36,601 nucleotides of DNA. Origin: a virus. The notes below the pieces were generated by a model. It was given only the letters and a program-made list of their open reading frames with translations. It had not been told where the DNA came from and made no database searches. The DNA lies in the UHGV virus genome UHGV-2204638, one strand, 5' to 3'. Shown piece after piece: positions 6,265 through 9,304 of the stretch. How positions within the stretch are numbered: position 1 is the stretch's first letter; every line of letters starts with the position of its first letter. Position numbers and translations under genes: made by a program.

Positions 6265-7182
6265 TTATCGCTTGGCTTCGCCGCCGAGAGAGGTTGTTAA
6301 TCCGTTAATGAGAGAGATAAGCTCGCCGGTCATCAGAACAAAGTCAGCGTCGAACCTCTGAGCCGCATCCTCACGGTCGATATCGTCGTTTTGTTCTGTA
6401 ATCTCATTAGAGAACTTAAGGCGTTTGATGCTGCCGTCATCGCAAAGAACGAACTGAATGCGCTGTTGCCAGTCGATAGACAGCTTTGTAACTACTTTGC
6501 CAGCTTCCAGATGCACATGAATTTCGTCACTGACCAGAGTCTGTTTTTTAAAGCGTCCAATACCACCATCTTCAAGAATAGCTTTCAGTTCGGCTTCATC
6601 ACCCAGGCCAAAGCCAGCAGGCGCACTACCGGAACGAACCCATTCGGTCATAGTTAGTTCGATCGGCGTTTCCATAGTCAGCGGTACCACCGGGAGAGAA
6701 CCGAGAGTTTTACGAAGCAGGGCCAGTGAGTCTTCGGCACGTTTAGCGCTGGCTGCATCAACCATGATCAGACCGTCGGTGACGTTGATCCACAAACTAA
6801 CAGTCGAGTTTTTGGAGAACGCCCGAGGAAGCAGGGAGTGCAACACTTCATCACGCAGCGAATCTTTCTCAGTTTTTTTGAGGCGACGCCCCTGATCGGA
6901 TTCCAGACGCGACACACGCTTGCGCAGTTCTTCAGCAATGACAGGAGATGGCAGTATTTTTTCTTCCCGGCGAATAACCAACAACACTTGATTATTGACA
7001 GTGTGATGCAAGCGATCTGACAGCTGACCAAGTGGTGATACCCAACCGGTTTTTGCCATATCCTGGCTACCGCATGGAGTGAAGCGAAATAGTTCAAGCT
7101 GCTGTTCCAGCTCTTCCTGGTTGATGGTGAAATCGCGATTAATGCGATACACCAACATATTTTTGAAAAACGGATTGTTCAT
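6265..7182 (-). CDS. rdgC: Recombination-associated protein RdgC homolog
   Basis: 305 aa, collinear and strongly similar to E. coli RdgC as recalled ([42 protein letters not shown]). Confidence 0.9.
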
Positions 7183-7339
7183 TCTCGGTTCCTCAACGCC
7201 TCTGCACCGGCGCTAAAAAGTTAGTTTCTCCATACACAACAGAGAAGGGCACCTGCATTGGTCGGCGGCTTGCAGAGACCGCTTTCTTTTTGCCCGGGTG
7301 GATTGGGTTATGAGCCCGTCGCCCGGTGATGCCCTTTTC

Positions 7340-7401
7340 TGTTGTGCCCTGAAAAAGGCTGGCGGTTACCGGAAATACACGGGAAAACACCGGGCCGCCA
7401 G
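7340..7401 (-). terminator. Putative tL1-like intrinsic terminator after the first leftward gene
   Basis: On the minus strand a 7+4 bp GC-rich hairpin (ctggcgg..ccgg / ccgg..ccgccag, 7359..7401) is followed within 3 nt by a run of five U; it lies in the 270-bp untranslated gap before rdgC. Confidence 0.4.
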
Positions 7402-7494
7402 AACAGGGAGTTACTTGTTATTGCTTTAGCCTGCTTTTAACCACATCAGGCGCGGTGGTATCTTGGTGTTCTCACACAACCAAGAGGGATGTTT

Positions 7495-7692
7495 ATGGGC
7501 GCTTTTGATAACCAGGAAATTACGTTACCCGCATGCCCTAAGTGCGGCACTAAGACGAAGAAGAAAATCGCTTGGCTCAAGTCGAACAAAAGTTTCACTT
7601 GTCGATGTGGAGCTACTATCAATGTCAACAGCAGCCAGCTTACTTCCGAAATCAGGAAGGTTGAGGACAAGCTGAAGAAGCTCTTTAAATAG
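7495..7692 (+). CDS. Small zinc-ribbon protein (65 aa), antisense to the 3' part of the ClpX-zinc-finger gene
   Basis: AAGAGGG RBS 7 nt before the ATG at 7495; CPKCG...(15 aa)...CRCG four-cysteine motif; lysine-rich C-terminus; a plus-strand terminator follows. Confidence 0.4.
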   Translation: MGAFDNQEITLPACPKCGTKTKKKIAWLKSNKSFTCRCGATINVNSSQLTSEIRKVEDKLKKLFK

Positions 7693-7890
7693 TTTTTTAT
7701 CGACTGATATTATTTCGTTATCAGAGGTTGGTTTTTCAGCCTCTGATTTTTTAGTCAGGATCATTTTTTCTACACATGTGACTACGCATTCCGAACAGAT
7801 GGCAGGTTCGTCCTTACCACCTTTTGCGACGATCTTTATCGCTCCCAGTTCGGTTGCTCCGCAAAATGAGCATGTGAATAAATGATTCAT
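7525..7890 (-). CDS. ClpX-type zinc-finger protein, first gene of the leftward operon
   Basis: CSFCG...(16 aa)...ICSECV matches the ClpX N-terminal C4 zinc-finger pattern. ATG at 7890 has GAGG 7 nt upstream. The C-terminal half is low-complexity and overlaps the plus-strand ORF 7495..7692. Confidence 0.5.
   Translation of the reverse strand: MNHLFTCSFCGATELGAIKIVAKGGKDEPAICSECVVTCVEKMILTKKSEAEKPTSDNEIISVDKKLFKELLQLVLNLPDFGSKLAAVDIDSSSTSTSETFVRLEPSDFLLRLSAALRACG
7720..7752 (+). terminator. Rho-independent terminator, plus-strand specific
   Basis: 8-bp stem atcagagg/cctctgat with a 12-nt loop, then six T; the reverse complement has no U-run. Confidence 0.5.
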
Positions 7891-7994
7891 GTAAACCTCT
7901 ACCCCCAACCTAAGTTTTCTGTCAGCGAATCATCCGGTCATTCATACGCCACCGGCGGCTACTTCGTGGGCGTCCTGCCTGTTCGTTACTGCAA

Positions 7995-8050
7995 CATCTT
8001 TAAGTTGTAATCTAGTTGTTGTTTTGGTTGTTGTCAACAACTTTATGTGG
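7995..8050 (-). promoter_or_regulatory. Leftward early promoter (pL-like) with operator-like palindromes
   Basis: The minus strand reads TTGACA (plus 8032..8037), a 17-nt spacer, then TAGATT (plus 8009..8014). The palindrome GTTGTTG-T-CAACAAC and AAGTTGT repeats overlap the promoter. Confidence 0.4.
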
Positions 8051-8099
8051 TTTTGACGGATGTGAAATGAGGGCAAGGGTTATCAAAAAAGGAGGTTGT

Positions 8100-8204
8100 A
8101 TGGACGATGCGCTTTTAATTACACAAGGGACACTTTCCTTCCGTGATTGGAAACTCTCAAATCACGGGAGGAAGATTGAAAAGGCGGGTAATAATGGTAA
8201 CTAA
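8100..8204 (+). CDS. Candidate small ORF (34 aa) convergent on cI
   Basis: Strong AGGAGG RBS 5 nt before the ATG; contains an 8-bp hairpin ccgtgatt/aatcacgg (8133..8165). Speculative. Confidence 0.25.
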   Translation: MDDALLITQGTLSFRDWKLSNHGRKIEKAGNNGN

Positions 8205-8231
8205 ATTTCTGAAGGAAGGTTTTTTGATGCA

Positions 8232-8918
8232 TTACCAAGTGCGCGATGACCAGAATACTCTACCTATAACGTGAATTCTTGAACGCCTATCTTCGAAGGT
8301 GAGTATTTCATCTGGATACTCATCTTTATTGAAACTTCTTAGAATCAGACCACCGTCAGGTAAATTGATCAATATTTTAACTCTAAGTAATACGCCATCA
8401 CGTATGGCATAAAGATCCCCATCACGAATAGGAACCGTTTGGGAAACATCAACAGCAACAAAATCTCCATTGTTAAGTACAGGTAGTAAACTATTGCCCC
8501 AAATTTTTACGATCTTTGCATTGGAGACACATACACCAGCTTTTCTTAAATCAATCCTTCTTAGCGGGAACCAGTCTACAGTTGATTCAACTATTTCAGC
8601 CAAACATCCATTACCCGCTGATAACTCGACATCTAGGACTGGAATGTTTGCAAAAATGTCAGGATCTAATGCTGTACTTTCAGCCTCCTTTACAACAAGG
8701 TCTGGGAAAGACGCGTTATCCTCAATGCCCAATTGCAACCACTTTTGAGAAACCCCTAACACTTTAGCAATCTCTTTAATTTTCCGAGGCTGTTGAGTTT
8801 CTCCATTCTCGATTTTCGCTACGGATTGTTGTGAAAGCCCAATTTTTTCAGCTAGTTGCGCCTGACTCATTCCTGCTTTTTCTCTTTCGCTTTTTAGTCT
8901 TTCTGCCAATGTTTTCAC
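8232..8918 (-). CDS. cI: cI-type prophage repressor (HTH-XRE N-terminus, S24 LexA-like peptidase C-terminus)
   Basis: QAQLAEKIGLSQQSVAKIENG is an XRE HTH; the C-terminal domain has the autocleavage-type serine and lysine context. Uses a GTG start with GAGGGGG upstream; divergent from the cro-like gene. Confidence 0.9.
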   Translation of the reverse strand: MKTLAERLKSEREKAGMSQAQLAEKIGLSQQSVAKIENGETQQPRKIKEIAKVLGVSQKWLQLGIEDNASFPDLVVKEAESTALDPDIFANIPVLDVELSAGNGCLAEIVESTVDWFPLRRIDLRKAGVCVSNAKIVKIWGNSLLPVLNNGDFVAVDVSQTVPIRDGDLYAIRDGVLLRVKILINLPDGGLILRSFNKDEYPDEILTFEDRRSRIHVIGRVFWSSRTW

Positions 8919-9055: not shown

Positions 9056-9304
9056 ATGACACCTGAGCAATTAGCCTTATCAGAGGCAATCGCTCTGGCT
9101 GGTGGTCAATCAGAATTGGCTCGGAAGCTCACAGCCAGCAGTGGTCGTTTAGTAAAGCAACAACATGTCTGGAACTGGTTGAACAGAGAAAAGCGTCCCC
9201 CTGCAAAACTCTCGATATTTATTGAAATGACCACTGGCGTATCAAAAGAAAAATTACGTCCAGATATTTTTCAAAAGATTAAAGACTTATCAGATGGAAA
9301 GTAA
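9056..9304 (+). CDS. Cro-like HTH regulator (YdaS-type)
   Basis: 82 aa; position divergent from cI; LALSEAIALAGGQSELARKL HTH; AGGAGA RBS. Confidence 0.75.
   Translation: MTPEQLALSEAIALAGGQSELARKLTASSGRLVKQQHVWNWLNREKRPPAKLSIFIEMTTGVSKEKLRPDIFQKIKDLSDGK

Follow-up and report, generated by a model that had tools for sequence, protein, structure and literature searches.

A probable codon-in-register antisense pair of protein-coding genes at the head of the early-left operon of a lambdoid prophage

The locus and its setting in the prophage

The window analysed here is the whole 36,601-nucleotide stretch of the virus genome UHGV-2204638. Its first leftward early gene (7525..7890, minus strand) is an ATG-initiated coding sequence for a protein of 121 amino acids, made up of a ClpX-like zinc finger, a linker and a module that lies antisense to a second gene. 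This second gene, on the plus strand, encodes a zinc-ribbon protein of 65 amino acids at 7495..7692 (ORF span 7489/7495..7692) and ends in the stop codon TAG at 7690-7692. The two genes overlap by 168 nucleotides (7525-7692). It follows from the coordinates that the codon triplets of both strands coincide, with position 1 of the plus codons opposite position 3 of the minus codons and position 2 opposite position 2. The minus-strand stop TAA (7525-7527) is thus the Leu11 codon TTA of the zinc-ribbon gene, and the plus-strand stop TAG is read on the minus strand as the Leu codon CTA. The ribosome-binding site AAGAGGG and the ATG at 7495 are outside the minus-strand coding sequence, while the plus-strand ORF from 7525 onwards and its terminator are inside it.

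A pL-like promoter (8009..8041, minus strand; TTGACA at 8037-8032, a 17-nucleotide spacer and TAGATT at 8014-8009) has the minus-strand gene as its first downstream ORF and would drive its transcription. A palindrome, GTTGTTG-T-CAACAAC (7+1+7), overlaps the -35 element of this promoter at 8027-8041, and more copies of GTTGTTG are found nearby. Judging from their sequence and position, the palindrome and its copies are likely operators of the cI-like repressor with HTH and S24 domains that is encoded on the minus strand at 8232-8918. A cro-like gene follows on the plus strand (9056-9304). The next leftward gene after the pair belongs to the RdgC family (6265-7182; Pfam E = 6e-116), and several related prophages likewise have an RdgC gene after the module. 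The interval that separates rdgC from the first pL gene contains a conserved non-coding region (7190-7465), which is also present in an E. coli prophage that carries no module (L106, 1080-1560). This region includes a leftward hairpin (7359-7401; z = -2.05) with CCUUUUUC behind it, which may act as a leftward terminator.

Downstream of the pL-like promoter and ahead of the first gene, a 66-nucleotide segment (7920-7985) is 86-98% identical in ST64B, SfII, SfIV, SfV, mEp460, Yersinia YeP1-3, Klebsiella and Pantoea phages, and is unannotated everywhere it was found. It might be a leader or an antitermination-type site. Folded as a leftward RNA, the region 7915-7990 was no more stable than shuffled sequences (z = +1.0). 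No RNA family was detected with Rfam, either at the gathering threshold over the whole window or at E<=1 over 7000-8300.

The plus-strand zinc-ribbon gene

The product of the plus-strand ORF 7495-7692 is MGAFDNQEITLPACPKCGTKTKKKIAWLKSNKSFTCRCGATINVNSSQLTSEIRKVEDKLKKLFK, in which the two zinc knuckles CPKCG and CRCG are followed by a C-terminal amphipathic, lysine-rich helix. The ATG at 7495 corresponds to the homologous start in all relatives of the ORF. As read from the sequence, a Shine-Dalgarno motif AAGAGGG (7482..7488), supplied by CACACAACCAAGAGGG, is located 6 nucleotides 5' of this ATG; across the family, GGAG, GAGG or AGGA occurs at -16..-4 of the homologous start in 38 of 53 loci, and a Shine-Dalgarno-like motif precedes the start in most of the others. 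The original prediction for this locus had described an ORF with these knuckles and a lysine-rich tail at 7495..7692, a well-spaced AAGAGGG before it, a strong hairpin with a T-tract that works on the plus strand only, and the nesting of the unit inside the first leftward gene, at the head of the pL operon. All these elements are indeed present.

When 1.84 billion cluster representatives were scanned exhaustively with HMMER, 331 clusters emerged at E<=1e-3, nearly all of them standalone proteins of 62-76 amino acids that match from end to end. The exact ORF of the window had been called just once in a collection of 5.8 billion proteins. At the DNA level, relatives were found in Shimwellia, Ewingella and Kluyvera-type prophages, in a Thalassotalea metagenome-assembled genome and in many viral contigs; they retain the ORF, the cysteine residues and the Shine-Dalgarno motif before the start, and the ORF is intact in every distinct relative except three. 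In the family alignment (A3), C14, C17, C36, C38 and W27 are invariant or nearly so, and the conserved core consists of the four cysteines, one tryptophan and the C-terminal helix. AlphaFold, run on the family alignment, places strands at 8-43 and a helix at 46-64 with a pLDDT of 83, a model in which the predicted fold is confidently that of a zinc ribbon plus a helix. On this comparative evidence, the ORF is a real gene of an unnamed family of zinc-ribbon proteins of approximately 65-75 amino acids.

Neither protein of the pair scored above threshold in Pfam, PHROGs, NCBIfam or PADLOC. Three prophage-encoded families with a CxxC...CxC arrangement and lengths of 50-65 amino acids invite comparison with the zinc-ribbon protein, namely Lar, YnfU and the translational activator Com of phage Mu. 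However, it stays below all the curated cut-offs, and the resemblance is limited to generic zinc knuckles. For Lar (PF14354) it reached 17.8 bits against 28.6, with 4 of 46 family members matching at E<0.01; for YnfU (NF038384/PF23499) 16.9 bits against 36, with weak Pfam matches for 7 of 46 members; and for Mu Com (PF10122) 16 bits against 22.9, over residues 2-21 only. We therefore rejected all three identities. Searches of PDB sequence profiles and with Foldseek returned only generic zinc ribbons, and among the solved structures none proved to be related. From its sequence, the protein looks like a small zinc ribbon of the kind that binds nucleic acids or proteins.

Promoter and terminator of the plus-strand unit

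Upstream of the plus-strand ATG, GGTGGTATCTTGG is invariant in nine diverged enteric variants, among which nucleotide conservation spans approximately 7436 to 7716. This segment could provide an extended -10 element, and we regard it as a weak promoter candidate for the zinc-ribbon gene (7436..7464, plus strand; -35 TTTAAC at 7436-7441, extended -10-like TGgTATCTT at 7456-7464). No sigma-70 promoter emerged upstream of the gene in a scan by consensus, and the invariant TGgTATCTT lies partly in the flanking conserved non-coding region that is also present in the prophage without the module. The 5' leader of the zinc-ribbon gene folds no better than shuffled sequences. Another promoter-like site, TTTAAA-18-TATTAT with a TG (7684-7713), is found on the plus strand at the end of the zinc-ribbon gene, just 5' of the terminator; it probably arose by chance, the sequence being AT-rich.

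The intrinsic terminator of the plus-strand unit (7720..7752) consists of a 12-bp stem at 7720-7747 and a T-run (U5-6) to 7752, so that in a plus-strand transcript the hairpin stands directly before a U-tract. Its folding energy is -17.6 kcal/mol (z = -7.1 relative to shuffled sequences), whereas the opposite strand gives a weaker fold (-13) and has no U-tract. On the minus strand, these same nucleotides encode part of the linker (KKSEAEKPTSD). The hairpin is kept in three enteric sub-groups, those with the ClpX finger, with AlpA and of L012, and the L012 and L003 groups show compensatory pairs (A-U/G-U/G-C and G-C/A-U). It is absent in four of the seven enteric sub-groups (the L013, L010, L035 and L040-44 groups).

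The minus-strand gene and its module

PGAP and RefSeq annotate the minus-strand gene as 'ClpX C4-type zinc finger protein' (WP_016240143). Its ClpX-type C4 finger (7765..7890, minus strand) comprises residues 1-42 with CSFCG...CSEC. The Pfam score for zf-C4_ClpX (PF06689) is 26.1 bits against a cut-off of 27 (E = 7.7e-6), with the CxxC...CxxC pattern present, and the ClpX entry of NCBIfam matches residues 5-75 with E = 1.6e-4. Residues 7-42 resemble the N-terminal domain of ClpX, with CSFCG...ICSECV, but in contrast to ClpX the protein has no AAA+ module and the finger is fused to the antisense-partner module. The same type of finger occurs in another protein (P0008) with an unrelated tail. 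It could contact the host ClpX system.

The conserved minus-frame module (7525..7716; E59-G121 plus the stop) is the part that runs codon-in-register antisense to the zinc-ribbon gene. The part of the minus-strand protein within the overlap had been described as low-complexity, a description that applies to just approximately 10 residues (SSSTSTSETF); the flanking segments LFKELLQLVLNLPDFGSKLAA and RLEPSDFLLRLSAALRACG are conserved. The segment opposite CRCG is variable and rich in S, T and A. The junction codons ExITIDK, which are in the minus frame and outside the plus-strand ORF, vary at the minus-strand wobble positions.

In enteric prophages, the C-terminal 63 residues recur in frame behind at least five different N-termini: the ClpX-like finger found here, an AlpA-type HTH (P0005), a coiled coil (P0006/7), of which L012 has a longer relative, and two more types (L035 and L040-45). 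With every one of these types, the module gene is the first leftward of the repressor. Five in-frame junctions would not be expected if the module were non-coding on the minus strand. Outside the enterics, the minus-strand partner is a free-standing, acidic operon protein of approximately 100-110 amino acids, and its gene encloses the whole zinc-ribbon gene. The partner in enteric lambdoid prophages has lost its own N-terminus, which has been replaced by varied N-terminal domains. These arrangements speak against the suggestion that the minus-strand gene is functionally shorter than annotated. The module, an acidic domain, tolerates numerous N-terminal partners. AlphaFold was uninformative for the minus-strand protein (pLDDT 51 on an alignment of 7 sequences), and neither PDB sequence profiles nor Foldseek gave a match for it.

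Distribution and loci with one partner

Over the 521 bases that surround the pair, the window shows 100% identity to a prophage of E. coli Nissle 1917, and the module is present in 44 of 5426 complete E. coli genomes. In the Nissle genome (NZ_CP022686.1) the locus is at 463,686-464,176. The E. coli prophage L106 shares the flanking non-coding region and the arrangement of the repressor but has no module. Both partners are co-conserved in Enterobacterales, Alteromonadales and many unassigned viral contigs with 38-68% GC. In the Thalassotalea prophage and in L110 the module is found after cro, beside a cI-like gene; in L108 it is within a Mu-like phage; and in a sub-group that we call 'MFE' (L080-L090, L099-L105) the dual-coded module is in the lysis cassette, away from immunity genes. 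This cassette also holds an endolysin, a spanin-like poly-Pro lipoprotein and a TM/coiled-coil protein. The pair is a mobile module present in many phages of Proteobacteria.

Some loci carry only one intact partner. In L066 and L067/68 the zinc-ribbon gene stands in plus-strand operons and the minus frame has 2-4 internal stops. The reverse is seen in the marine contigs L063/64 (1372-1809), in which the plus-strand gene has lost its second cysteine pair through a double frameshift over CSCG, with a CAA>TAA change that is Leu-synonymous on the minus strand; their minus-strand gene is intact and operon-coupled, and carries an 8-codon tandem duplication (GDLLVNAT x2). In two metagenome contigs (L039 and L057, near 1535), a 1-nucleotide deletion at plus codon 12 kills the zinc-ribbon ORF and lengthens the minus-strand ORF by approximately 26 codons, and the zinc-ribbon protein of L033 has a C36Y change. 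These last cases may reflect genuine decay, or errors of assembly.

PGAP and most gene callers annotate the minus-strand gene only, and one partner has been dropped in every RefSeq record of E. coli that has the module. Among cultured phages, the collection searched holds the family only in one unannotated E. coli phage fragment, and a literature search found no description of this antisense pair. A paper on a 'phage repressor' of strain Nissle (PMC5987069) concerns a different sequence, and its primers are absent from both the window and the Nissle locus.

Evidence that both frames code

The minus-strand ORF is intact in 30 of the 30 viral loci found through the plus-strand protein, by which most of our loci were ascertained, and in three of three further loci where gene callers had picked the plus-strand gene. 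It is intact in all enteric and marine loci and broken solely in L066 and L067/68. Conversely, two loci found via the minus-strand protein also have intact plus-strand ORFs. An open antisense frame is, by itself, poor evidence of coding, given that composition alone leaves 22 of 32 family genes free of internal stops in antisense. For this reason we replaced openness as an argument with the extent of the ORF, its coupling within operons, its N-terminal extension and the classes of substitution.

At the 33 non-enteric loci identified by nucleotide pattern or through called plus-strand proteins, excluding L066 and L067/68, the in-register minus-strand ORF starts with an ATG that is 15-30 codons past the plus-strand stop and ends at or before the plus-strand N-terminus. 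It usually has its own ribosome-binding site. It overlaps the upstream minus-strand gene by the 4 nucleotides ATGA in at least nine loci, and its stop overlaps the start of the next gene in six. The N-terminal extension, which is outside the plus-strand gene, is itself conserved: when an HMM built from one sub-group was scanned against six frames of 33 loci, the correct frame gave the top six non-training matches.

The codons of the minus strand opposite C14, C17, W27, C36 and C38 tell of the other frame. In 24 loci with an intact minus-strand ORF they are GCA, ACA or CCA in 120 of 120 cases, against a background use of these codons of 16%, 20% and 25%, respectively, and the minus-strand residue toggles between Ala and Thr as the plus codon toggles between TGC and TGT.

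Pairwise raw p3/p1 ratios were ambiguous alone and were replaced by a four-class analysis with controls, in which each difference was sorted according to what it does in the two frames, with normalisation by opportunity. NS/NN compares changes that are silent only in the minus frame with those that alter both frames, and SN/NN does the same for changes silent only in the plus frame. NS/NN was 2.42 (2.14-2.74) in the enteric overlap, 7.6 (4.7-15) in the marine group and 1.90 (1.77-2.07) in the 'MFE' sub-group, with bootstrap intervals that are too narrow because the resampled codon pairs share phylogeny; the corresponding SN/NN values were 4.4, 13.9 and 2.5. Adjacent single-coding genes of the same genomes, scored with a phantom antisense frame, gave an NS/NN of 1.09 (0.94-1.26) and an SN/NN of 1.98, and the plus-only pair L066-L067, which is a single pair, gave 1.05 and 2.55. 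NS/NN points the same way in all three clades, and neither control shows this direction, the ratio there being approximately 1. Among 93 dual-coded pairs at a divergence similar to that of the plus-only pair, NS/NN was 1.51 and 96% exceeded 1. Changes silent in only one frame were accepted 2-14 times more often than those altering both, and the commonest class of substitution was silent in both frames.

Both ORFs are intact across diverged homologues, with a separable signature of purifying selection on each frame. From these comparisons we consider it highly probable that both reading frames are under purifying selection and form a dual-coding pair. Of the two options left by the original prediction, the analysis of conservation and selection in both frames that it had proposed (NS/NN 1.9-7.6 and SN/NN 2.5-13.9 in three clades) favours a genuine sense/antisense pair, with both partners conserved well beyond E. 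coli. Selection on the minus frame only, which had been named as the result that would count against such a pair, is not what the SN/NN values and the NCA codons (120/120) indicate.

Discussion

The reading that best accounts for these observations is that 7495-7692 on the plus strand and 7525-7890 on the minus strand are a genuine antisense gene pair with codons in register, whose products would belong to alternative states; on the sequence evidence we regard this as probable. A broader claim, to which we lean only slightly, is that the pair is an old, mobile two-protein module in which approximately 200 bp are read codon-for-codon on both strands, which has been kept as a unit in phages of distant Proteobacteria, and of which each partner can survive alone. 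The products, a basic zinc ribbon and an acidic protein of approximately 100 amino acids, are hydropathically complementary and, as far as their sequences suggest, may bind or oppose each other. Moreover, the shared DNA may enforce absolute linkage of the two genes and mutually exclusive expression in the lysogenic and the lytic state.

For how the alternative states would come about we offer, with some reserve, a working model of convergent transcription. With pL repressed, the plus-strand unit would be transcribed from its putative weak extended -10 promoter, and the transcript would end at its own terminator, before reaching pL and cI. Upon induction, transcription from pL would pass the hairpin, which has no U-tract in that direction, so that the minus-strand protein would be made; the same transcription would suppress the plus-strand unit by transcriptional interference and RNA pairing.

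A role of the plus-strand unit mainly as a cis-antisense RNA, which would damp the first pL gene by pairing or convergent collision while its protein is secondary, seems unlikely, but it is the best of the alternatives and does not conflict with a genuine gene pair. The unit faces pL in convergent orientation and overlaps the 3' part of the first early gene, it has a strong terminator just upstream of the codons for the ClpX finger, and the module adjoins immunity genes in enteric, marine and other prophages. However, selection at the amino-acid level on the plus frame is not needed for a role of RNA only, the terminator is not conserved across all sub-groups, and in one sub-group the module is found in the lysis cassette rather than near immunity genes.

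Somewhat less probable still is that only the zinc-ribbon gene is functional and that the minus-strand ORF merely runs on, the codons TTA, CTA and TCA being rare in the family. The real minus-strand product would then be a ClpX-like finger of approximately 45 amino acids with a meaningless tail. The low-confidence AlphaFold model of the minus-strand protein and the variable S/T/A-rich segment opposite CRCG agree with this idea, as does the fact that an in-register antisense frame without internal stops (22 of 32 family loci) is expected from composition. Against it stand the NS/NN values of 1.9-7.6 compared with 1.05-1.09 in the controls, and the in-frame fusion to at least five unrelated N-termini, for which the chance by frame alone is approximately (1/3)^4 or less. 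In addition, the non-enteric minus-strand ORF has its own ribosome-binding site and ATG, a conserved N-terminal extension and 4-nucleotide coupling to its neighbours, and the minus-strand gene outlives the loss of the plus-strand gene in L063/64. Finally, that only the minus-strand gene is functional, and the plus-strand ORF a shadow opened by the amino-acid composition of the minus-strand protein, is very improbable: PGAP and most callers do annotate just that gene, and the zinc-ribbon gene is lost in L063/64, frameshifted in L039/L057 and altered (C36Y) in L033, but a shadow ORF would hardly account for NCA codons at all 120 of the sites opposite Cys and Trp (background 16-25%), an SN/NN of 2.5-13.9, valid start codons with Shine-Dalgarno motifs retained family-wide, plus-only loci in plus-strand operons, 331 clusters of standalone proteins, a confident zinc-ribbon model and a terminator on the plus strand only that is conserved with compensatory changes.

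The genuine gene pair that we prefer has counterparts among known systems. Morons of lambdoid prophages are cassettes of promoter, gene and terminator. The zinc-ribbon unit is like them in being small, autonomous, provided with a strong terminator and located beside the immunity region, and in that its module is present or absent among related prophages (L106 being without it). In contrast to morons, it is inside a coding gene and not between genes, and its promoter is only a candidate. The original prediction had raised a moron of the immunity region and a brake on early-left transcription as possible functions; the lack of the module in L106 and the retention of the terminator, with compensatory changes, in three sub-groups are compatible with such a cassette. 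The oop RNA of lambda, which acts against cII, and the sar RNA of P22, which acts against ant, are short non-coding RNAs. The predicted convergent transcript of the plus-strand unit likewise runs across the 3' part of an early gene and is delimited by a terminator but, unlike oop and sar, it encodes a conserved protein.

Closer parallels are the antisense embedded genes of E. coli O157:H7, such as ano, which were described from RNA-seq and Ribo-seq (PMC9927249, PMC5960689), three of them in one study (PMC9927249). They too are short ORFs antisense inside an annotated gene, with their own ribosome-binding site, promoter and terminator elements, and ignored by annotation pipelines. The O157:H7 genes are known from single strains and expression data, and their 'mother' gene is the older partner. 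The pair described here differs in its broad co-conservation, in that each partner also occurs alone and in the selection on both frames, and it is known from sequence alone. Long antiparallel ORFs have also been viewed sceptically (bioRxiv 10.1101/724807).

Long antisense coding overlaps in bacteria and phages are disputed and discarded by annotation rules, and those known are mostly from single strains and rest on expression data alone. Here, comparative evidence alone separates the two constraints, with the one-partner loci as natural controls. The family of at least 331 clusters without a name points to a systematic gap in annotation. Experimentally, each gene of the pair is separately mutable, given that the plus-strand start is outside the minus-strand coding sequence and the minus-strand linker (7693-7764) is outside that of the plus strand; the host, E. 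coli, including the probiotic strain Nissle 1917, offers an experimental system. The position of the module, first in the early-left operon and beside the repressor, bears on the wiring of lysis and lysogeny in lambdoid prophages that lack N. Should the pair indeed be such an old and mobile module of two proteins, no other antisense overlap of protein-coding genes so far seen in bacterial viruses would be as widely conserved.
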